Shown here one piece after another: positions 4,178 through 61,605 of a stretch of 64,000 bases of DNA. The notes beneath the pieces were generated by a model that saw only the letters and a program-made list of their open reading frames with translations, searched no databases and was not told the origin of the DNA. Both the position numbers and the translations under genes were made by a program. How positions within the stretch are numbered: position 1 is the stretch's first letter; each line of letters begins with the position of its first letter. Where the stretch lies: the NCBI GenBank assembly GCA_000165345.1, contig CM000429.1, forward strand, positions 160,001-224,000. The letters run 5' to 3'.

Positions 4178-5260
4178 TTACTCTAATTTAGAAATTCTTT
4201 TAATAAATACATATCTACATGCACTGTCAACACTAAAAAGTCTGCTAGTCTCATGTATATATTCATTATAGTTTTTAATTCTGTTAAAATCTAAGTTATT
4301 TGTATTGTCTTGTTCAAAGAGACAACTTGGGATGTGGCTTGTTTCTCTATATGGAATTTTAATGTTAATAGACTTTGATGATGAGGATGAGTTTTTTTTT
4401 ATCTTGGCATTTTTCTTTTCTTTATGATCACTTTCTGAATCGGTTATGTTATCTTCCTTCATAGTTTCCTTATATTTGGCCTTATTTTGACTGCTCGAGT
4501 CTTTTTTCTGAACTTCTTTTCCACTATCTTTTTTTGTGTCCTTTTCATCCTTAGTCTTGGCTTGATCAGACTTATTCTTCAGGTCTTTTTTCTGATCTTT
4601 TTTAGGGTCCTCCTTATGATCCTTTTTGGTTTCTTTCTTAAGGTCCTTTTTCTGATCTTTCTTTGGATCTTTTTCTTGATCTTTTATTTTGGTTTCTTTC
4701 TTTGGATCCTTTTTCTGATCTTTCTTTGGATCCTTTTCTTGATCATTTATTTTAGTTTCTTTTTTCTGGCCTTCCTTTTGATCCTTCTTTTTGACCTCCT
4801 TTTTTACGTCCTCCTTAGTTTTGGCTTTATCAGCCTCCTCCTTCTCCCTCTTTTTATTGCCCTTCTCTTGAACCTTATTTTCAGACTCTTTTTTTTGGTT
4901 CTTTTCAGTATTCTTTTTAGCATTCTTTTCAGCATTCTTTTCAACCTCCTTCTCCGCCTCTTTCTTGTCTTTTTGCTTCTCATCAGATTTCTTCTGATCT
5001 TTCTTTGGATCCTTTTCCCAATCCTTTTGTCCATCTAATTGTTCATTATTTTTTATATTAGCATTATCATCTTTGAAAATTGATAATAAATTAAATTCTT
5101 CGTTACTTCCAAAACTCCAATTATCTGAAATTTCGTTCTTTCTTTTTTCTGAGTCTAAAATCAACTCTAAAGAAAGACTCTTATCATCTTCAATCATTTC
5201 TTCCTTTAACAAAGCTGGAATGTCTGAAATGATAAGTTCTTCCCGCCTCAACTCTGACAT
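4178..5260 (-). CDS. Lys/Glu/Asp-rich low-complexity repeat protein of 360 aa.
   Basis: ATG at 5260..5258 confirmed (revcomp of 'cat'). The central region is built of roughly 20-aa units (DPKKDQKKDPKKETKIKDQEK) encoded by near-identical tandem DNA repeats of about 60 nt. The antisense ORFs 4487..5038 and 4804..5034 are low-complexity artefacts of the same repeats. Confidence 0.6.
   Translation of the reverse strand: MSELRREELIISDIPALLKEEMIEDDKSLSLELILDSEKRKNEISDNWSFGSNEEFNLLSIFKDDNANIKNNEQLDGQKDWEKDPKKDQKKSDEKQKDKKEAEKEVEKNAEKNAKKNTEKNQKKESENKVQEKGNKKREKEEADKAKTKEDVKKEVKKKDQKEGQKKETKINDQEKDPKKDQKKDPKKETKIKDQEKDPKKDQKKDLKKETKKDHKEDPKKDQKKDLKNKSDQAKTKDEKDTKKDSGKEVQKKDSSSQNKAKYKETMKEDNITDSESDHKEKKNAKIKKNSSSSSKSINIKIPYRETSHIPSCLFEQDNTNNLDFNRIKNYNEYIHETSRLFSVDSACRYVFIKRISKLE
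4560..4800. repeat. Tandem direct repeats of about 60-63 nt (around 3 copies) inside the K/E-rich gene.
   Basis: Units such as 'tctttctttggatcctttttcttgatcttttattttggtttctttctttggatcctttttctgatc' recur with few substitutions between about 4600 and 4790. Confidence 0.6.
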
Positions 5261-5500
5261 AACATACTATTGCAACTTTATAATGGAAATATTAATCTTG
5301 AAAATGTTCAAAAAAAAAAGATTACTATTCAATGAGAGGAAAAAAGCTTCCATACAACAAAAAAGAGAAAAGAGCTTAATTTCTTTTTCTTTACACTACA
5401 GATCTTTTCCTTAATTGATATCACCCTTTCAACTCACCCTTCTTTTTTTTTATTAGTAAATATTCAATTAAAATATTTCATCATTTTTTTCGCATGACTA

Positions 5501-5590
5501 TTTAGGCGCCAAAAACATGCGTTGCTACTTGCATAAAAATATTACCGGCATATATTTTGCTACTTTTTTTGTATACCGGCATTTACATGC
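5501..5590. promoter_or_regulatory. Divergent promoter between the K/E-rich gene and the 5711 gene: TTTAGGCGCCAAAAACATGCG (E2F-like) and two ATACCGGCA boxes at 5543-5550 and 5573-5580.
   Basis: Motif matches. Confidence 0.45.
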
Positions 5591-5710
5591 GAAATAATTA
5601 GTGGCAGGGAAAAGGGAAAAATAGAATTTAGAAAATAAAAATTAATTTATTATTATGAATATAAAATAGTTGAAAATTTGGTTCATTTTTTAGTATTCTA
5701 ACAAATTAAT

Positions 5711-6937
5711 ATGAATGGAGAGAAATCATTTAAAGACTTGGAAACTCTTGTTTCTAGGTATATTAAATTGAATATGAGTGAAGAAAGAGGGGAAGGAGAA
5801 GAAGAAGGAGGAACAAGAAGAAGAAAAGGAAGAAGTGGAGAAGAAGAAGAAGAAAAAATATTTATTGATAGTTTTGAGTTATGTAAAGGAGCAAAGTCAA
5901 TCCGAAATAAACGAAGAAAAATAGAAGATAGTAACTCTTCGTATACAAATTCTGAAAATTTAAATCATAGAAAATTAACTGGTACCATTGCTCAATACCT
6001 TCTAAGTAGAGTACCTTTACCTACATCAAGAGTTGATATACAGAAAAAATTCATCAAACCAGAGGGATCAAAAAAAATTGATTTAGACTCAATTCTTAAT
6101 ACAATTAATGACAAATTCAAATCTTGTATGGGATTGGGAATATTTGGACTAGATAAATCAATCACTAATCAAACATCGTCCAACCCTAAATACTATGTAG
6201 TACAACTGAATAGATCAAAAGCTCATCTTGACCTAGTTTATCAGTTTGGAAATATCGACTTTAAATCGATCGGAGAACTTACAATTAATCAAGATGAAAA
6301 TCATCTTGTTTCAAATCGACTTTGTAATTCCTTTCTAACATTTCTAAGCTTTATATATGGTTTCTTTGAAATTACTTCTTCAGATGAAGATCTTATCCAA
6401 GATGATGAAGATTCTTCCAAAATTATTCAGAGTAACGAAGAAATCGAAATTCCAATAGGTAAGTAAGATTTGAATCAACTGTTTCATAAGATAAGTTAAG
6501 TTACTATAATTGCTTAAAAAATTTCTATCCCAGATTACCTACTTGAATTAATTAAAGAGTTTACTGGAATTATTATCAACTCAAGTAAGTCAAATTTAAT
6601 TAAAAAAGATTAATTTCTTAATTTGATTTTTTGTTTTTTAAATAAATATTAACTTTTCTCAGAAAATATTATATTTGAGCTTAACACATTCTTCAACTCA
6701 AAATCAGCCAACTCCAAACAAACCAATGAAGATGATGATCTCCCAACTATGAGTAATTCTAAGCTTTCAAAAATTTCTATTCTATTTTATATTCTTCATA
6801 AAATTGGATACCTTATTCCTACATTCTCAAAACAAACAACAAACAACAATGATCACATTATCTCTGGATTCAAAAATGGACCTCTACTTAAATGGGATTC
6901 TGAAGCTATCAAAAAAATTGTTAACTCTTACTCTTAA
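5711..6937 (+). CDS. Hypothetical protein of about 357 aa, modelled as three exons: join(5711..6458,6534..6584,6663..6937).
   Basis: ORF 5711..6466 ends at G|GTAAGTAAG (donor at 6459). ORF 6749..6937 is in the compatible frame downstream of the acceptor ttttctcag| at 6662. Between them, a 51-nt stop-free micro-exon (acceptor cccag| at 6533, donor |GTAAGT at 6585) keeps phase and reads DYLLELIKEFTGIIINSK. The two introns are 75 and 78 nt, typical short introns. The alternative is a single 204-nt intron (6459..6662), which is also frame-consistent. Confidence 0.5.
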
Positions 6938-15900: not shown

Positions 15901-15950
15901 TGCATGTTCCCGCCTAAAAGCCATGTGGCCAATGCATGCAATACCGGTAC
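15901..15950. promoter_or_regulatory. Promoter motif cluster for the divergent coiled-coil and HAD genes: TGCATGTTCCCGCCTAAAAG (E2F-like on the minus strand) and AATGCATGCAATACCGGTAC (composite GCATGCA + ACCGGTA).
   Basis: Motif matches. A CCAAT box (ggccaatgc) is also present. Confidence 0.5.
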
Positions 15951-33200: not shown

Positions 33201-36200
33201 AATAAGCATAGTAATAGTAATGCAAATCAAGGGAAAGGAGGAGGTAAACTTCAGACAAGTACTTTTTCTGATTCAAATTTTCCAAAATTATTAGAATCAT
33301 CATTAAGATTTGGTTCATCATTATTAATTCAAGATGTAGGATCATCATTAGATCCTTTAATATATAATGTATTAAATCAAGAAATTCATTTACATGGAGG
33401 AAGATCATTAATAACAGTAGGAGATAGTGAGGTTGATTTTTCTCCTCATTTTAGAGTTTATTTAACAACTCAAGATCCAACAATCCAATATGGTCCAGAT
33501 CTAACAAGTAGGGTAACGATGGTAAATTTTACTGTAACACCAACATCACTTTTAGAACAGAGTAGAAATATTATTTTGAAAGAATTACGTCCAGATATTG
33601 ATAAGAAAAGAACAGATTTACTTAGATTACATGGTGAATATCGTGTACAATTAAGAGAATGTGAAGATAATTTGTTATTAGCTTTATCAAATGTGAAGGG
33701 TAATATTTTAGAAGATGAGACAATTATTAATACATTAGAAGTACTTAAAAAGAAAGCTCAAGATATACAAATAGAGACAGCAAAAATGGAGAATACTATG
33801 GAACATATAGATCAAGTACTTACTCATTTACTTCCATTATCATTAACAGCAACAAGAATTTACTTTACTTTACAACATTTATCATCAATTAGTCCAATAT
33901 ATCAATATGATCTTGAATTTTTTAATAGAATACTATATGGAGTATTAGAAAGAAATAAATCAAAGATTAATTCAAATTCAAGTGATAATGGAGGAGATCA
34001 TGAAGGAGATAATGGAGAAGAAAGTAGTAATAATAATATAGAATTTGATCACAAGATACAAAAGATTATAATCTTAGATCTATTGCATGAAGCATATTTA
34101 AGAGTTGCTCAAGGTTTATTACATAATGATAGAATAGTATTTGGATTACATTTGATGAGAATTTATATTGAATCATATTGTAATCTTTCTTTAGATAATT
34201 TAATGGGAAAAGAAATTGATCTTTTAACAAAATCAGCATCAGCAATCAATATATCAAGTTCAAGATCTTCTTCTTCAAATAACAATATATTGGATTCTAT
34301 ACCAAAATCTTTTGGATTAGATCGAGAACAAATGAATCAACTTTCTGTAATGATTTCATCAATTAAATCGTTTTCTAAACTTTGTGAATCATTTAATTCA
34401 AATAAAAATGAATGGGAGCAATTAATGATTTCAACAGAACCTGAAGTAATATTAGATACCTTAGGTACCGGTATATGGGATGATCAGGAATTATTAGATT
34501 CAATATTCAATAATGATGATAATAATAATAATCAGATGAATTCTGAAGAATTTAATGAGAAGAGAGAAATATTAAAGAACTTTAAAAAAGGTGTATTAAA
34601 ATGTTTATTATTAAAGATTATTCGTCCTGATCGTATTGTTACTTTATTTAACAAGTTAATATCAGATACATTAGGATCTGAATTTTCTAATATCAGTGAA
34701 TTTTCTAAGGATTTACTTAAAGAGATTGTTTTGAAGCAAATAACTGAAATAACACCAATATTATTTGTAACTTCACCAGGTTTTGATGCTTCTTTGGTGG
34801 TTTCTCAATTAGCAAATGAACAGAATTCGAATTTACTTTCTATTGCAATAGGATCAGCAGAAAGTTTAGAAAAAGCTGAATCATCAATTAAGACAGCAAT
34901 GAGAAAAGGTACATGGGTTATGTTAAAAAATGTTCATTTATCTTCAGGTAATTTGGATTATTTGGAACAATTACTTCAAAATCGTCAAAATAGACCAAAT
35001 AAAGGATTTAGATTATTTTTAGCAACAGAATTACCAAAAAAGATTTTGAATCCAAGTCATAAAGATTCAGTTATTGGTGCATCATTTAATACATCAGATT
35101 CTTCATCAGGTTCATTATCACCACTTGGTATATCATTTAATTTAATTCGTATTTCAATGACAATAGTACTTGAATCTCCTGTTGGACTTAAAGCAGCATT
35201 ACAAAGAGCAAGTGAGATTACTATTAAGACTGTGGATGATTCTCAATCTTCTTCAACAATAAGAATAAAATTATACTTTTTATTAGCATTTTTACATTCA
35301 GTAATATTAGAAAGAAAAAGATATACACCATTAGGATGGACAAAGTTTTATGATTTTAGTGAAGCAGATCTTCAATGTTGTATTAATATAGTAAATCAAT
35401 GGACAATAACAAATATATCAGGAGATCCTGAACAGATTCCATGGGAAGCAGTACGTAAATTAGTATCACAAGTAGCATATGGAGGAAGATTGGATAATAT
35501 TGTAGATAAACAGATTTTATATATATTAATAGATGAGATTTTATCATCAAAATCATTTGAAGATGGATCAGAATTAATAAGTTGTACAAGTGAATGGAAT
35601 AAATTATATAGAAATGATCAAATAAAGCCAAATATTTTATTAGCTCCAGATACATCTAAAAAAGTTCAGAATTATTTGGATTGGGTAGAAAAATTATCAA
35701 GTACAAATTGGCCAACTTGGCTTGGGTTATCTCCTTTAGCAGAGAATGTGATTTCAGCACAAAAAGGACAAAAGATGAGTTTAAATTGGAGTGTATTAAT
35801 AATTAGATCAAGAAATGAAACACCAGATTTGATCCCAAAAGATAAAGGTAATATGATTACAAATATAGAAGAAAATGAAGAATTAATGGGAGATGGAGGA
35901 TTATCAGGAGGAGGAAATAATAAGATAGAACAAGAAGAGGCATTAAAATCAGATACAACAGGAATACCAAGTTGGTTATTAAAGATTAGTGGAAAATTAA
36001 CAAAAATGGAGAATAGCTTAAGAATATTTTCAGAATATATAATAAAGAATTCAAGAAATATTATAGAATATTCAGAGAATAATAGTTTGGATCCAATATT
36101 AAGATATTATGTTTCAGAGATTTCGAAATTCTATAGAGGATTTAAAAATATTTGGGAAAACATTCATGAATTATTAAATATTCTTGGAGGTGAATCAAAA

Positions 36201-36974: not shown

Positions 36975-37212
36975 AAGTTTGGAAATGGGTGGAATTTGCG
37001 TCAAGTGCATGCACGAGACGGCGCGCGGTGGTCTGCATGCATGCCGGTAAAAATGGGTACCGTAGGTAATAATAATTGTTGATAAGAGAGAAGAAAGGAA
37101 ATAAGAGGTGGAGAATTGTTGTAAATGTTATTATTTTAAATATAAGAATAAAATACTTACATTTTAATTTTAATCTACTTATGTATTATTTGTATGATTG
37201 ATTGATAATTGA

Positions 37213-53423: not shown

Positions 53424-54604
53424 GAGTTTTCTTCTTCAGTGGCTTGAAATATTAACACATCCCTACTAATTTGTCAAAGTAGACTCTGTTTTTTTTTTAA
53501 ATAGATTTAATAATTTTCTTTAATTGTTATTAAATTAATTAGTAAAATATTAGTTAATTATTGAATAAACAAATTCATATATAAATATATATATTTTGAT
53601 ACTTAATTTTTTTTTTCTCAATTTTTTAATTCTTTCTGCAAATTATTATTTCAAGATGAAAGCACTTTATAATTGAATAAAAGACAAACTCTAATTATTT
53701 TTTTTTTCTTCTCTTGTGAGAAAATTGAGCAGTCTTTTATGCTGTCCTTTTCCCTAATACTCTCAAAATCCCATTATTTTCTTCTTTATTAATAAAATTC
53801 ATATATTACATATATACCCATGCACGTATTTAAATATAGTCAATTTTTTTTTTAAAAATTTGCAACAAGACTGCACACAACACGTGTCATTTTGCATGTA
53901 CAAAATTGCAATACCGGCGTGGCAGCAGTTCCACATGAAAATACACCGGTACTAAAACACTTGCATAAATTTTTGTCCACATGACATTGGAATTATAAAA
54001 AAAATGACAACGGATGAGATACAAAATTTGAATATTTTACTTTAAATAATTGACAAAATAATGAGTTTTTAATACGAAAACAAGATATGAATTTAATGCA
54101 AACATATAAATGTATATATTTTTAAAATTATTCTCTCGATAATTGGGGACTTTTATATTAGTCTAACCATTTTCAAAAGGAGCGCATGCAGGTTATCCAC
54201 ATGCACATGCACTTTGGCAAACATTTTTTTAGCAATAAATTACCGGCATGATAATACAGATTTTAAGTCTTAACTAGAAATTGAGGATTTTTTTTTAATT
54301 AAAAATTAAGATGCTAGTTATTTTAAAAAGATTTAATCTATAAAAAAAAATTGACTTTTTATTCCAAATTAATATTTTAATGAGGGGACAAGGTAGAAAT
54401 ATATTTGTGGGGAGCTTGGTGGGGCAATGCAAAAACAATAGATTTAATTAGGCGGAAACAGAATAAAAAAAAAAAAAATTAAGATCACCAAGAGAAAAAA
54501 GACCAAGTTTGAATAGGTAACAAGAATCAATTAGCTAAATATCGAGAATTTAAGTTCGACCCAGTATTGCCAAATTTTCTATAAAATAGTGAAATGTTGG
54601 CCTG

Positions 54605-57233: not shown

Positions 57234-60218
57234 ATGACAAAAAAGAGACAGGCTAGTCAATCGAATAATGAAGCCAAATTAGTAGAAAGTGATACGGATT
57301 TGGGGTCAATATACTCAATTAGCAATTTCGACAGTATTCTATTGGCTTGGGATTTTTTTAAAGATATTAAGGAGGAAGTTTTTGGGGTGGAAAGGCCAGA
57401 TGTCGTTAATTCATTTGATATTTCTGGAGAAACTTGTCAAGTTAGAGATAACCCAACAAGATTTGCTACTTCCAAGGAGTATTTGGATTATTTTTTCCCA
57501 CTCTTTTTGTTGGAATGCCAACAATCTATTCAGAGAGCTAAACAAATAGAGATGAGTGACTTTGACACTTTTTCACTCAAGGATATTAGAGCTAATAATT
57601 CAAATAAATTGGAAGAGTCGAACTTTCTAACCTTGGTATTTGAAAGAAGGAGGGCTGATGAATTAATATACTTTTCTCCACAAGATTTAGTACTGATCAT
57701 ATTTGACCCTGAGTTTAAGTCGGAGGAATTTGATGATAATTTAAAGCACGTAATAGGGGTAGTTCAAGGTTCAAATTCAAATGGGAGAGTGACTATCACA
57801 GTCTTAAATCCTAATTATTATGTTGATGATAAAACAATGAAAAGAAAGATAGCATCTTTTACTAGTCAAGATCGGTTGGTTTCGAGAATGAAATCTTTCA
57901 GTGATTCATTGGGAAATAAGGAGTTTGGACAAGATACTTCCAATGCTTTGTCACAAAGCTCCTCTCAAGCTTGGTATTTATCAAGAATAACCTCATTTTC
58001 GACCAACTATAGGGAGCTTAGCGGCTTATTTTCACTTCCGGATCTTTTATTAAAAGATGAACTTTTGTGCAGAGGCCTAACTTGTGAGCACACTATGAAA
58101 ATTCCCACTTTATTGCAGGAAAAGTTGAAAGAAAAATATAATCCTTCTCAAATGAGCGCATTAAGCGAGTGTCTTAAATATAGTGGAATAAGCCTTATTC
58201 AAGGCCCACCTGGGACTGGTAAAACTACCACAATTATTGGAATCATTAGCGCCCTCTTGTCATCAACATTTGAAGTTAAGAATGCTTCAGAAGACAGTAG
58301 CGATGAAGAGAATATTGAAACTAAGAAAAGGAAATCTAATGAAGAAAATATCTCAGAAATGTATGCACCAATTCTTAGAGCTAAACCCTGGTGTTACGAT
58401 CCAGACTACGTACCTTGGTATGACTCAGAAATGAAAAATCTCAGGATTTTCAGGCATAACAAAGTTGAAATTAAAAAAGTAACTTTGGACACAAGTAGTA
58501 GAAAAATGGGGCCTCGAAAATTACTTGTTTGCGCTCCTTCTAATGCTGCTATTGACGCCATTGTTAGAAAACTAGTCAGGAACCCTATAACTGGAGAAGG
58601 TGGTATATTAGACAATACCGGTGAATATTATTCCCCCACATTAGTTAGGGCGGGACCAAATTTTCACCCAGATTTGCATGACTTAAGTTTAGAGTACAAG
58701 TTACAACAAAGACTACAAAGAAATGGATTTGATGCAAAGAATTGTAAACAAGAAATACGTCAGCAAACTCAGTGGAAGATTTTACAAGAGTCACAAATTG
58801 TTTGTGCAACTCTCTCAGTATGTGGGAGCAAGGAGCTAATTTCAATACTAAGTCAGAATGGCAGAATGCAGGCCGCGGGAAGTGGTGACAGGACCGCATT
58901 GTCATTTGATACTGTTATAATTGATGAAGCTTCTCAAGGCGTTGAGTTATCTACTTTGATTCCATTGAAGCTTGGATGTAAGAGGCTGATTTTAGTTGGG
59001 GATCCAAAACAGCTTCCAGCAACAGTACTTTCGAGACGAGCAATAGAACGAAAATATGACATTTCTCTTTTCCAGAGACTTCAAATGAGTGGACAACAGG
59101 TAGTAATGTTGAGTGTTCAGTATAGAATGCACCCACAGATTTCTGCTTTCCCCTCGAAGCATTTTTACGACGGAGAATTACATGATTATAAGGATATACT
59201 CAAAACAAGAGCTCCTGTTGTAACTTGGCAAGATATCCCAATTTTTAAACCTTTCACTTTCTTTTCAGTGAATTCAGAAGAGGAGCAGGGAAAATCGATT
59301 TCAAATCTACTAGAAGCAGACTTTGTTTGCCAAATTTTGGAGCTTCTAGGGCTTATTCTTTATGAACATCAAAAGAAATTAACAGAAAATACAGACTTGG
59401 GAGAACCCAGTAAAAGATGGTATGAAAGGATTGCAGTCATTTCTCCATATAATGAACAAGTTAAAATTATAAGGAAGAAAATCAAAGAGAAGTTTGGACT
59501 AAGTCCTGAAACTATTTGTCCTATTGATGTTTCAACTGTTGATGGTTTTCAAGGTCAAGAAAAAGATTTTATAATATTTTCAGTTGTAAGATCTCAGTAT
59601 ATAGAAGAAGATTCTCTGAATAACGCTGATAATAGGAAGACAAATGCAGGGTTTATTGCAGACAGGAGGCGTATAAATGTTGCTTTAACAAGAGCAAAAT
59701 ATAACTTATGGATTGTAGGTAATAGTAGATATCTTCTTGGAAATCCAGAATGGCGTAGTCTTTGGGATTATTCTTGTAAGAACAATTCTCAATTTTCTGT
59801 TGACTTTAAGAGGATTGGTTCAACAGAAAATTATTTGAAACTTTGGTTATATGGGTTTCTACAACGTAAGGAATCTTGTAGAAATGCTCTTCGACAAGAG
59901 GTTCCTGAATTTGTTCAAAATCTTACATTGGATTGTTCAGTACTTGAGAAGAATAAGGATACTTTAAATTCAGTCACGGAAATTAAGGCAAAAGTGGATT
60001 CATCATTCTTTGTTGACCTTAAAGAAGATAGCCAAGGCTATGAATCCAAGAATAAAAGAGGTTCTAAAGTTTTCCAGACTGAATCAAAGCCTATTGAAAT
60101 TGAGGAAAACGGAGTAATTCGTAAATTCAGAAATCTAGACCTTGATCTTTTCTGTGATATTAATGAGTATGAATCCAGTAAAAATAAAGATCTTGAGTCA
60201 GAAAATGCTGCTGAGTAA
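57234..60218 (+). CDS. Superfamily-1 Upf1-like helicase (Sen1/senataxin-like) of 994 aa.
   Basis: ATG at 57234 confirmed. SF1 motifs are present: I GPPGTGKTTTIIG, II VIIDEASQ, III GDPKQLPATV, V VDGFQGQEKDFIIFSVVRS and VI RRINVALTRAKYNLWIVGN. The protein has the AAA_11/AAA_12 architecture with an N-terminal accessory region. Confidence 0.88.
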   Translation: MTKKRQASQSNNEAKLVESDTDLGSIYSISNFDSILLAWDFFKDIKEEVFGVERPDVVNSFDISGETCQVRDNPTRFATSKEYLDYFFPLFLLECQQSIQRAKQIEMSDFDTFSLKDIRANNSNKLEESNFLTLVFERRRADELIYFSPQDLVLIIFDPEFKSEEFDDNLKHVIGVVQGSNSNGRVTITVLNPNYYVDDKTMKRKIASFTSQDRLVSRMKSFSDSLGNKEFGQDTSNALSQSSSQAWYLSRITSFSTNYRELSGLFSLPDLLLKDELLCRGLTCEHTMKIPTLLQEKLKEKYNPSQMSALSECLKYSGISLIQGPPGTGKTTTIIGIISALLSSTFEVKNASEDSSDEENIETKKRKSNEENISEMYAPILRAKPWCYDPDYVPWYDSEMKNLRIFRHNKVEIKKVTLDTSSRKMGPRKLLVCAPSNAAIDAIVRKLVRNPITGEGGILDNTGEYYSPTLVRAGPNFHPDLHDLSLEYKLQQRLQRNGFDAKNCKQEIRQQTQWKILQESQIVCATLSVCGSKELISILSQNGRMQAAGSGDRTALSFDTVIIDEASQGVELSTLIPLKLGCKRLILVGDPKQLPATVLSRRAIERKYDISLFQRLQMSGQQVVMLSVQYRMHPQISAFPSKHFYDGELHDYKDILKTRAPVVTWQDIPIFKPFTFFSVNSEEEQGKSISNLLEADFVCQILELLGLILYEHQKKLTENTDLGEPSKRWYERIAVISPYNEQVKIIRKKIKEKFGLSPETICPIDVSTVDGFQGQEKDFIIFSVVRSQYIEEDSLNNADNRKTNAGFIADRRRINVALTRAKYNLWIVGNSRYLLGNPEWRSLWDYSCKNNSQFSVDFKRIGSTENYLKLWLYGFLQRKESCRNALRQEVPEFVQNLTLDCSVLEKNKDTLNSVTEIKAKVDSSFFVDLKEDSQGYESKNKRGSKVFQTESKPIEIEENGVIRKFRNLDLDLFCDINEYESSKNKDLESENAAE

Positions 60219-60544
60219 CTCAGTTGCTTTGTAATTAGATTCTCCATTATTTACTATATACCAATCTCTTCTTTGATTTAAATAACGCAAATAATATAAT
60301 TCTAATTTAGTTTTTATATTAAATTCTATTATACTAGTTTTAGTTATTGCAATTTTTCTTATCCACTTTTTTTCTCATTTCAATTTTCTCCTATACCGGT
60401 ATTTCCATATATTCATATTGTAATCACATGCTTATGTGGACAAATTAATTATTAACATTTTCCGCATGCAAATACCGGTCAACCATAATTTATGGGAATG
60501 TTATGAAAAGGAAAAAAGTTTTTTTTTTATTATTAAATGTAAAG

Positions 60545-61453
60545 TTAGTCATCATCTGGAAGTCCAAAGTTATTATTGATTTCTTTTTCAGAAATTCCAG
60601 GCATTTTTTTTTTGATCCATTGTCTTAGACTACAGACATTATCTTCCCAAATAGATAATTCTTGGTTAGTATTTGATAAATTTTCATTCAGGATTTTAGG
60701 ATTATCTTTGATTATAATGTTGATATTATCTAACCTAATAACAAGTTCTTTCTGTTCTTTCAGAATTTGATCTAATTCTTGACTTTTTTTTTCTCTGATT
60801 TGATGCTCAGGAGAATCAGTTTCTTTAGAATCTTTGATCATTTTTTCAAGTGATTTAATTTGTTCTTTGGAATCTTGGATTGAATTTCTGTTTCAATATA
60901 ATAAGATAAAATTCAAGTATAAGTGAGTTATATATGTTTAATAACGTAAGTATACAATGATAAAAATATTAATAAGAATTTGAGATATTCTAATTTTTGT
61001 GATTAAACTTACTTTAAATATTCCAACCTGTTTTCTTTGCTAAATTTAGCAGCACTAGGAAGAGCCCAAAAAATATTAAGAGATCCAATTTTGTCACTTA
61101 CAACCAAAGAATCGTCTACAAGACTTTGCAAAACGTCTTTGACAGTTTGTTCAATTATTCCACATTTCTTTCCTAATTTTTCTATTTCTTTTAAATTAAA
61201 ACATTCTTTCTATAATGAAATTATTAAAGGAAATAAATATTTGTAATTCAAAAATTATATTCACTTTTTATTGCTTTTCTCAATAATTTTCAAACTGATA
61301 AAACTTACTTTTTCGTATAGAGAGTTCAATAATCTAATGAATTGTTCGGAAAATAGAAATTTTAGTTACATAATTTTTACAAATTCTTTCATTTAAACAA
61401 TCATAAGCTTACCTTGAACGTTTCTCTTCCATAGAAACTCCTCTTTTAGACAT
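60545..61453 (-). CDS. MND1: Meiotic nuclear division protein 1 (Mnd1), about 201 aa, modelled as four exons: complement(join(60545..60887,61013..61209,61309..61333,61413..61453)).
   Basis: ATG at 61453..61451. The donors are CAAG|GTAAGC, AAAAA|GTAAGT and TTTAAA|GTAAGT. The acceptors are cattag|, cattatag| and ttgaaacag|. The introns are 79, 99 and 125 nt. The spliced protein reads [74 protein letters not shown]...KKKMPGISEKEINNNFGLPDDD. This aligns along its length with metazoan/fungal Mnd1 ([76 protein letters not shown]...RKFGFEENKIDRTFGIPEDF). The ORF track shows only the last exon (60545..60841). Confidence 0.8.
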
Positions 61454-61560: not shown

Positions 61561-61605
61561 AAAATGACGTAATATATTTGCATGCATGCAATTATACCGG
61601 TATGG
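61561..61605. promoter_or_regulatory. MND1 upstream cluster: CRE-like TGACGTAA at 61565-61572, TGCATGCATGCAATT at 61580-61594 and ATACCGGTATGG at 61594-61605.
   Basis: This lies 110-150 nt upstream of the MND1 ATG at 61453 on the minus strand. Confidence 0.45.

Follow-up and report, generated by a model that had tools for sequence, protein, structure and literature searches.

Several over-represented words have been described in the non-coding DNA of Cryptosporidium parvum, and a recent review tabulates six families of them: AP2_1, AP2_2, G-box, E2F, GAGA and CAAT-box (2025 review). Two of these are among the closest described counterparts of the element reported here. AP2_1 (TGCATGCA) is shared across Apicomplexa, and its binders, known from protein-binding microarrays (PBMs), are ApiAP2 proteins of C. 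parvum, among them cgd2_3490, cgd1_3520, cgd8_3230 and cgd5_4250. The E2F/DP word ([C/G]GCGC[G/C], TTTGGCGGGAA) has a known binder family and dominates peaks obtained by assaying transposase-accessible chromatin with sequencing (ATAC-seq). Here we describe a further word, TACCGG(C/T)(A/G), in a 64-kb stretch of C. parvum chromosome 1 (hereafter the window, meaning that whole stretch) and its orthologues in other Cryptosporidium species. TACCGG resembles AP2_1 in being a short palindromic word enriched in non-coding DNA and found upstream of mRNAs and, putatively, long non-coding RNAs (lncRNAs), and the two adjoin at many sites. It resembles E2F/DP in being a GC-rich CpG word of AT-rich intergenic DNA that lies in the same promoter clusters. 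In contrast to both, it lacks the TGCAT/GCATGC core of AP2_1, and its own core, ACCGGY, is neither [C/G]GCGC[G/C] nor GGCGGG; nor is it reported in the ATAC-seq peaks that E2F dominates. The word is a real, conserved cis-element, not surprising in kind, as found over one 73-kb stretch and its orthologues, and it is probably a regulatory element of the intestinal-type Cryptosporidium species.

The window was identical (100%) to CP029780.1 of assembly GCA_031892065.1 over the compared part, and its proteins matched C. parvum Iowa II and ATCC entries exactly (CPATCC_000337 to 000356). GC content was 29% over the window, 27% in non-coding DNA and 30% in coding DNA. The non-coding (13.6 kb) and coding (50.4 kb) fractions were delimited from open reading frames (ORFs) together with two intron-containing genes, Mnd1 and an 81-amino-acid gene, which were taken from annotated relatives. 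Comparison DNA consisted of ~220 kb of orthologous sequence from eight other Cryptosporidium species: C. tyzzeri (L002), C. sp. chipmunk genotype I (L012), C. ubiquitum (L006, L009), C. canis (L013), C. felis (L007, L010), C. ryanae (L014, L015), C. andersoni (L008) and C. muris (L011). Gene order was kept across all orthologous loci, except in C. ryanae downstream of the helicase. The 9.4 kb of C. parvum DNA directly past the window (L004) was used as an out-of-sample check. Expected counts were derived from dinucleotide-preserving shuffles (n=100) for TACCGGYA and from a first-order Markov model of non-coding DNA for the ranking of k-mers.

Based on these expectations, TACCGGYA was strongly over-represented. 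Its 12 strand matches in the window, corresponding to eight distinct places, compare with 0.23 expected, and none of the 100 shuffles reached 12, bearing out the statement of a first-pass annotation of this DNA that the word recurs far above chance. In non-coding DNA the core TACCGG occurred 13 times against 0.89 expected (P = 1.5e-11) and ATACCGGT six times against 0.08 (P = 3e-10), and both enrichments survived correction for all k-mers; coding DNA held three copies of TACCGG. The TACCGG type made up 12 of the 18 CCGG tetramers in the window. Defining sites by the looser form TACCGGY / RCCGGTA, we obtained ten distinct sites in non-coding DNA (CCGG at 5545, 5576, 15944, 37044, 53914, 53946, 54243, 60396, 60475 and 61597) and two in coding DNA (CCGG at 34468 in the dynein ORF and at 58618 in the helicase ORF). 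The first-pass annotation had counted 11 intergenic sites; the recurrence holds, but the true count is ten, because its entries '37051' and 'GCCGGTA at 37050' both refer to the single site GCCGGTA at 37043. Some of its coordinates were slightly off, 37043 being misplaced by 7–8 nucleotides (nt) and 60392 and 60471 by 1 (true positions 60393 and 60472), and the two coding sites were absent from its list. It had also described four copies fused to GCATGCA. All four are real; the composite AATGCATGCAATACCGGTAC lies exactly at 15931–15950 as described, and the other three start at 37034 rather than 37042, at 60462 rather than 60461 and at 61579 rather than 61581. The sites and neighbouring features are, by region:

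5543–5551, plus strand: site A1, TACCGGCAT, in the divergent region 5261–5710, preceded by an E2F site TTAGGCGCCAAAA (5502–5514) and TGCAT.
5574–5591, plus strand: site A2, TACCGGCAT-TTACATGCG, spaced 31 nt from A1; the ATG at 5711 follows 135 bp downstream.
15931–15950: site B, the flagged composite AATGCATGCA-A-TACCGGTAC, with GCATGCA at 15934–15940 and the palindromic TACCGGTA at 15942–15949; in a divergent region, upstream of both neighbours, at 193 bp from the ATG of a coiled-coil gene (15751, minus strand) and 259 bp from that of a 211-amino-acid gene (16203).
15907–15928: companions of site B, E2F-like TTCCCGCC (15907–15914) and CATGTGG (15922–15928).
37020–37049: site C cluster, E2F-like GGCGCGCGG (37020–37028) and the overlapping composite TGCATGCATGCCGGTA (37034–37049); in the 3'-3' region between the dynein heavy chain gene (plus strand, stop 36974) and a dual-specificity phosphatase gene (minus strand, stop 37213).
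53859–53995: conserved block of ~135 nt in the middle of the 1.2-kb intergenic region between the kinase and DHHC genes, holding sites D1 and D2 together with GCACAC, ACACGTGTCA (53880–53889), TGCATG, two copies of CCACATG and TTGTCCACATG (53973–53983).
53912–53920, plus strand: site D1, TACCGGCGT, inside the conserved block.
53944–53952, minus strand: site D2, AGTACCGGTG (plus strand CACCGGTACT), 32 nt from D1.
54241–54250, plus strand: site D3, TACCGGCATG, 362 bp upstream of the ATG of the DHHC palmitoyltransferase gene (54605).
60393–60401: site E1, ATACCGGTA, in the convergent region between the helicase gene (plus strand, stop 60218) and Mnd1 (minus strand, 3' end 60545).
60464–60480: site E2, GCATGCA-AA-TACCGGTC, 70 bp past the Mnd1 stop.
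61579–61605: site F, TGCATGCATGCA-ATTA-TACCGGTATGG, 144 bp upstream of the Mnd1 ATG (61453, minus strand).
34466–34473: coding occurrence of TACCGGTA in the dynein heavy-chain ORF, left out of the element.
58615–58622: coding occurrence of ATACCGGT in the helicase ORF, left out of the element.
4560–5050, in the minus-strand ORF 4178–5260: a 12-nt-periodic imperfect tandem repeat, coding, CTTTTT/GATC-rich on the plus strand (repeat families D1–D3).

Among all k-mers of the non-coding DNA, GCATGCA, poly-A and GGCGGG, the E2F word, ranked immediately above TACCGG, with the G-box below it, and within the window it therefore behaves like the named Cryptosporidium promoter words; AP2_1 itself was found 27 times against 2.6 expected. 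None of the 18 single-base variants of TACCGG, all counted in non-coding DNA, was enriched in its own right, the high score of TGCCGG being due to its identity with the reverse complement of the motif's own CCGGCA flank, and the word is thus sharply defined. The aligned sites gave the consensus NTACCGG(C/T)(A/G)T, often extended to WTACCGGYAT, beyond which the flanks were unrelated between copies. The asymmetric form TACCGGC was found in either orientation relative to the neighbouring genes, which argues for a DNA-level rather than an RNA-level signal.

Short CG-centred, often palindromic promoter words are also familiar as sites of general factors in compact genomes. Examples are the sites of Reb1 (TTACCCGG), of DREF (TATCGATA), of Grainyhead/CP2 (AACCGGTT, with the GRHL core ACCGGT) and of c-Myb (YAACNG). 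Reb1 shares TTACC..GG with the TACCGG motif and also acts at 3' ends. In plants, DREB-type AP2/ERF domains bind the dehydration-responsive element TACCGACAT, so an AP2 fold can read an ACCG-type core; this element agrees with TACCGGCAT at eight of nine positions. The corresponding look-alike words, however, were at expectation in the non-coding DNA (TACCCG 1 against 0.89, AACCGG 1 against 1.33, TATCGG 1 against 2.04), and the plant-type TACCGA was found 0 times against 1.64 expected. A c-Myb-type recognition element was considered and rejected, TAACGG occurring three times against 1.9 expected. ApiAP2 domains, moreover, are not DREB orthologues, and the AP2 primary motifs that the 2025 review tabulates for C. 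parvum include none resembling the plant element.

The enrichment was shared by other species. Eight sites against 0.32 expected were found in the non-coding DNA of C. tyzzeri and seven against 0.30 in that of C. ubiquitum, with coding DNA at expectation in both, and the enrichment was weak in C. felis (3 against 0.81); unlike AP2_1, TACCGG was thus seen enriched here only in the intestinal Cryptosporidium lineage. Compared with C. ubiquitum, five of nine sites were identical over 8 nt, against 10.5% of background intergenic 8-mers, and TACCGG hexamers were kept in 8/12 cases (67%), against 16% of background hexamers. In the same comparison the established motifs were kept at similar rates (GCATGC, the AP2_1 core, 56%; E2F, 86%; G-box, 71%). 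Judging by this excess over background, ~4-fold for hexamers and 5-fold for 8-mers, the TACCGG sites are under selection.

Conservation could be followed at individual sites. Site B was the best-conserved element of its intergenic region. Its TA.CGGTACT was invariant in C. parvum, C. ubiquitum, C. felis, C. ryanae and C. muris, the last reading TATCGGTACT, and was the longest invariant run there; the nearby CCCGCC and CACATGTGG were conserved in the first four of these species. The A1 8-mer was identical in C. ubiquitum, C. felis having TTGCCGGCT, and at A2 a 19-nt stretch was identical in C. ubiquitum, with the 31-nt distance to A1 kept. The site C cluster was kept in C. sp. chipmunk genotype I as GACGGCGCGC...TGCATGCCGGTAAAATGGGTACCGTA; in C. 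canis the E2F site and GCATGC were kept and TACCGG was lost. C. tyzzeri, C. ubiquitum and C. felis have an unchanged D1, C. ryanae has TACCGTCGT there, and D2 was kept as ACCGGTACT in all four; the pair was retained through C. felis, C. ryanae and C. andersoni. E1 was kept in C. tyzzeri; its orthology in C. ubiquitum is ambiguous because the region there holds one CCGG only. E2 was found as GCATGCAAATACCGGTA in C. tyzzeri and as GCACCGGTATAG, 71 bp from Mnd1, in C. ubiquitum, and at site F TACCGGTATGG was identical in both species, C. felis keeping only GCATGCATG...CCGG. The coding copy at 34466 was also kept in the ORFs of chipmunk genotype I and C. canis, which coding constraint explains.

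Three further observations concern these sites. The meiosis gene Mnd1 (minus strand, about 60545–61453) has a GCATGCA-TACCGG composite on either side (60464–60480 and 61579–61605), both conserved in C. tyzzeri and C. ubiquitum. Thirteen nt downstream of the site at 37043, a near-copy, GGTACCGTA (TACCGG minus one G, 37057–37065), is conserved in chipmunk genotype I as TGGGTACCGTA. In the gastric species only traces of the motif were seen, in C. andersoni at D1, where TACCGGCAT is aligned (also given as TACCGGCATG), and in C. muris at site B. Five of the AP2 domains of C. parvum are missing from each of these two species (2025 review), and to connect this with the scarcity of the motif in them would be speculation.

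The first-pass annotation had also suggested that the word forms a bipartite module with GCATGCA, and three lines of evidence agree with this. When each site was permuted inside its own intergenic region and GCATGCA within 5 nt was scored, four of the ten sites had such a neighbour against 0.66 expected (P about 0.002); the gaps at 15931, 37034, 60462 and 61579 were 1, 0 (overlap), 2 and 4 nt. C. ubiquitum has the composite of site B, TGCATGCAATACCGGTAC, without any change, and in C. felis and C. ryanae GCATACCGGTAC is retained 177–216 bp from the same ATG. Finally, the adjacent L004 sequence contained three further sites, TACCGGCATTCATGCA, TACCGGCATTTGCATG and GCATGCAAGCCGGTAT, each adjoining TGCATG. 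Read in one orientation, the arrangement TACCGGY(AT)-N0-4-TGCATGC fits eight of the 13 C. parvum sites (ten from the window and three from L004), the other five standing alone. GCATGCA within 5 nt was missing at six of the ten window sites, and most GCATGCA sites of the window were without TACCGG.

The modules have a recurrent architecture. Along the DNA of regions A (5502–5582), B (15907–15950) and C (37020–37049) the order was E2F, TGCAT(GC), TACCGG, the E2F sites being separate elements 15–35 nt from TACCGG. A rule orienting the composite toward the downstream gene was rejected, as sites A1/A2 and D1/D2 contradict it. Two side observations may be recorded here. TTGTCCACATG and CCACATG-type words recur beside TACCGG (53973–53983, 53931–53937, 15922–15928 and about 60430). 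The site pairs 5545/5576 and 53914/53946, the only two such pairs, are spaced 31 and 32 nt, ~three helical turns; C. ubiquitum keeps the distance of the first pair, and C. tyzzeri, C. ubiquitum, C. felis and C. ryanae keep that of the second.

Sites occurred in divergent, tandem and convergent intergenic regions, and seven of the ten lay upstream of at least one gene, 135–690 bp from an ATG; over the window and the 9.4 kb beyond it, distances to ATGs ranged from 100 to 690 bp. The genes near them (dynein, kinase, palmitoyltransferase, helicase, Mnd1, ubiquitin-like protein) are functionally unrelated. In the convergent regions, 37044 lies 70 bp past the dynein stop, and 60396 and 60475 lie 149 and 70 bp past the Mnd1 stop. 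Region C, within the convergent region 36975–37212, has a promoter-like cluster of GGCGCGC and TGCATGCATGC, and region E, within 60219–60544, has GCATGCA together with ATGTGGACAA, which lies between E1 and E2 and is the reverse complement of TTGTCCACAT, the 'motif5' of Li 2021. In C. parvum, antisense lncRNAs start mostly at gene 3' ends and carry E2F, AP2_1 and TTGTCCACATK ('motif5') within 100 bp upstream (Li 2021). Since these lncRNA motifs surround 37044 and 60396/60475, the simplest reading of the convergent copies is that they belong to antisense promoters, and the clusters probably mark promoters of lncRNAs antisense to the phosphatase or dynein genes and to Mnd1.

The block at 53859–53995 stood out by its conservation. 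Five species (C. parvum, C. tyzzeri, C. ubiquitum, C. felis and C. ryanae) share it nearly without change, although its flanks are completely diverged, and C. andersoni retains part of it. Within it, ACACGTGTCA, which has a palindromic E-box-like core, was invariant in five aligned species including C. andersoni, and TTGTCCACATG is the lncRNA-upstream 'motif5' of Li 2021. The ATCC locus tags jump over 000343 between the kinase and DHHC genes. Candidate readings of the block are a promoter or enhancer of very high density and a non-coding gene that has escaped annotation.

The abstract of the Bankier paper of 2003 reportedly described two abundant motifs. In Oberstaller 2013 and the 2025 review, the AP2_1 and E2F motifs are credited to Bankier 2003. 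TACCGG was absent from Mullapudi 2007; none of the 25 upstream motifs of Oberstaller 2013 contains CCGG, and the supplements of that paper are without ACCGG or CCGGT. Literature searches for the word with Cryptosporidium, apicomplexan or AP2 returned primer sequences and unrelated papers only. The nearest published word is 'motif4' of Li 2021 (CCCATACCAGGTGGA, Table S3), left without annotation or interpretation by its authors, three listed instances of which hold the TACCGG core (CCTATACCGGCTGTC, CCCATACCGGCGTTC and CCCATACCGGGTGGA). Its own core, however, is TACCAGG, and TACCAG had no occurrence in the non-coding DNA here; as a prior description it was rejected, since the motif is driven by a tandem array upstream of a single lncRNA, made up of seven 15-nt copies of which six are identical. 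The word was thus absent from the published motif lists examined, logos shown only in figures not being searchable, in agreement with the first-pass annotation, which had not recognised it as a named Cryptosporidium motif, and within the literature examined the element is apparently unnamed and undescribed.

Several other explanations of the recurrence were weighed. That it is non-functional, whether an artefact of composition or mutation or a relic of a dispersed repeat, is extremely improbable. The window is of small size, a CpG is part of the motif and, because CCGG is rare in an AT-rich genome, a few copies give a large fold-enrichment; yet the dinucleotide shuffles and Markov expectations already include CpG frequency, near variants are unenriched, the copies share no flanking similarity, conservation exceeds background to the same degree as for known motifs, and the enrichment is seen again in other species and in the 9.4 kb next to the window. 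Nor were the sites covered by any of the 20 largest of at least 60 direct families or the 25 longest inverted pairs in a scan of the whole window, the repeats among the families shown being low-complexity and coding only. An RNA-level signal, either a motif of untranslated regions (UTRs) or a structured non-coding RNA, would apply at least to the D1/D2 pair, and we regard it as very unlikely. The block that holds this pair is far more conserved than its surroundings, the skipped locus tag 000343 could be an annotated non-coding gene, the 3'-3' sites are probably transcribed within 3' UTRs, and an RNAalifold consensus of four species pairs D1 with D2 in a 6-bp stem around a small GTGG/CCAC hairpin. 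Any two copies of a palindrome can pair, however, so the stem alone is no evidence; in the same four species compensatory changes were found in 0 of 25 predicted pairs, and on this ground an RNA gene was not adopted as the explanation. The whole window gave no Rfam match at gathering thresholds, a permissive scan of 53700–54150 gave chance-level matches only (E of 4–5), and a tRNA scan of the window found none. The orientation of TACCGGC to flanking genes is likewise inconsistent, and the block is built of recognisable DNA motifs (E-box-like ACACGTGT, TGCATG, CCACATG).

Two explanations at the level of DNA come closer to the element as described above. TACCGG could be an extended or secondary specificity of a TGCATGCA-binding or multi-domain ApiAP2 protein, making the composite a single binding site; several ApiAP2 proteins have AP2_1-like primary motifs and some have multiple AP2 domains (2025 review), the halves lie 0–5 nt apart at eight of the 13 C. 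parvum sites, and their spacing at site B differs by 2 nt only between C. parvum/C. ubiquitum and C. felis/C. ryanae. We consider this unlikely. The five sites without a nearby TGCATGC include well-conserved ones (5543, 53912), most GCATGCA sites of the window have no TACCGG beside them, the spacing ranges from overlap to 4 nt, and TGCATGC stands on either side of the asymmetric TACCGGC. CCGG is also missing from the ApiAP2 primary motifs of the 2025 review and from the PBM paper's text, which describes secondary motifs as mostly similar to primary ones. Somewhat less doubtful, though still improbable, is a site for a general regulatory factor or an insulator, comparable to yeast Reb1 or Drosophila DREF/BEAF, which would bind nucleosome-free DNA of every intergenic type, demarcate closely packed units, block read-through at 3' ends and separate divergent promoters. 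The sites do occur in all intergenic types alike, three of ten in 3'-3' regions, beside functionally unrelated genes and with a composite on either side of Mnd1, and they were missed by expression-cluster motif searches, as one would expect of a factor that is not confined to a stage. The Reb1-type TACCCG and other near variants are not enriched, however, and any likeness to Reb1 is therefore one of behaviour only; E2F and GCATGCA accompany the convergent copies in complete promoter-like clusters, an arrangement that antisense promoters explain more simply, and the close coupling to TGCATGC points to combinatorial logic at promoters.

We therefore return to TACCGG(C/T)(A/G) as a cis-regulatory element of intestinal-type Cryptosporidium and a candidate site for a sequence-specific nuclear protein, which we hold to be the probable explanation. 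The word is over-represented in non-coding DNA, sharply defined, and conserved at orthologous positions above background, and from these patterns we infer that it is bound by protein and affects transcription. Against this reading weighs, first, that only ~73 kb of one C. parvum chromosome (the 64-kb window and the 9.4 kb beyond it), together with orthologous regions, was covered. Several results also speak against it. Three of the ten sites lie in 3'-3' regions and are not upstream of an annotated protein-coding gene. D3, the least conserved site, is kept in C. tyzzeri only and lost in C. ubiquitum and C. felis, and E1, E2 and F are lost in C. felis; the gastric species, in small samples only, showed little or no non-coding enrichment. 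The top three MEME motifs of a sporozoite ATAC-seq preprint were only E2F-type and poly-T, and the expression-cluster motif search of Oberstaller 2013 did not recover TACCGG, so the word may be less prominent genome-wide or not bound to expression clusters.

As a cis-regulatory element, TACCGG might work as follows. The ACCGGT core is palindromic, with the half-site GGTA nearly invariant and the other half relaxed (TACC or TGCC); one strict and one relaxed half-site suggest a dimer, or a monomer reading TACCGG. The element is placed in the dense promoter blocks of a compact genome, typically downstream of an E2F site, and in ~60% of cases 0–5 nt from TGCATGC, a site to which ApiAP2 proteins bind. 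Two factors would then probably bind side by side and act jointly on transcription of the flanking gene or genes, while the 3'-3' copies would probably be part of antisense or intergenic lncRNA promoters. As for the protein, the first-pass annotation had pointed to ApiAP2 or Myb specificities matching ACCGGT. No such specificity is found among the primary motifs that the 2025 review gives in its Table 4 for all 18 ApiAP2 proteins, TACCGG matches none of the ApiAP2 PBM motifs (TGCAT-like, CACACA/GTGTGT, G-box, GCGTGCA, GGTGCACC, AAAA), and neither the Myb section nor Table 6 of the review gives a Myb specificity for C. parvum. Four C. parvum ApiAP2 proteins (cgd3_2970, cgd6_5320, cgd3_1980 and cgd6_1140) gave no PBM motif and so remain candidates (2025 review); the Mybs predicted to bind DNA are cgd6_4510, cgd3_2510, cgd5_110, cgd3_1120 and Myb-M. 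With no tabulated AP2 primary specificity fitting, the candidate binder would be an AP2 protein without a PBM result or a non-AP2 protein (Myb, C2H2 zinc finger). A bolder form of this proposal, which we put forward as a minority possibility, is that a previously unrecognised non-ApiAP2 protein, for example an uncharacterised Myb or C2H2 protein, serves the ApiAP2 proteins that bind TGCATGCA as a general architectural partner in intestinal Cryptosporidium, marking bidirectional and 3'-end antisense promoters and helping to insulate packed units in the manner of Reb1 or DREF.

Few regulatory words are known in Cryptosporidium; several over-represented motifs are without a known binder, and the targets of most ApiAP2 proteins are unknown. 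Against this background the motif may serve as a probe for a new transcription factor and as a handle on combinatorial control with ApiAP2 proteins. It may likewise mark unannotated promoters, including those of 3'-end antisense lncRNAs, and could improve the design of transgene promoters in C. parvum. If the bolder proposal were true, a Reb1/DREF-like factor in an apicomplexan would be a third pillar of the promoter grammar beside E2F and AP2.

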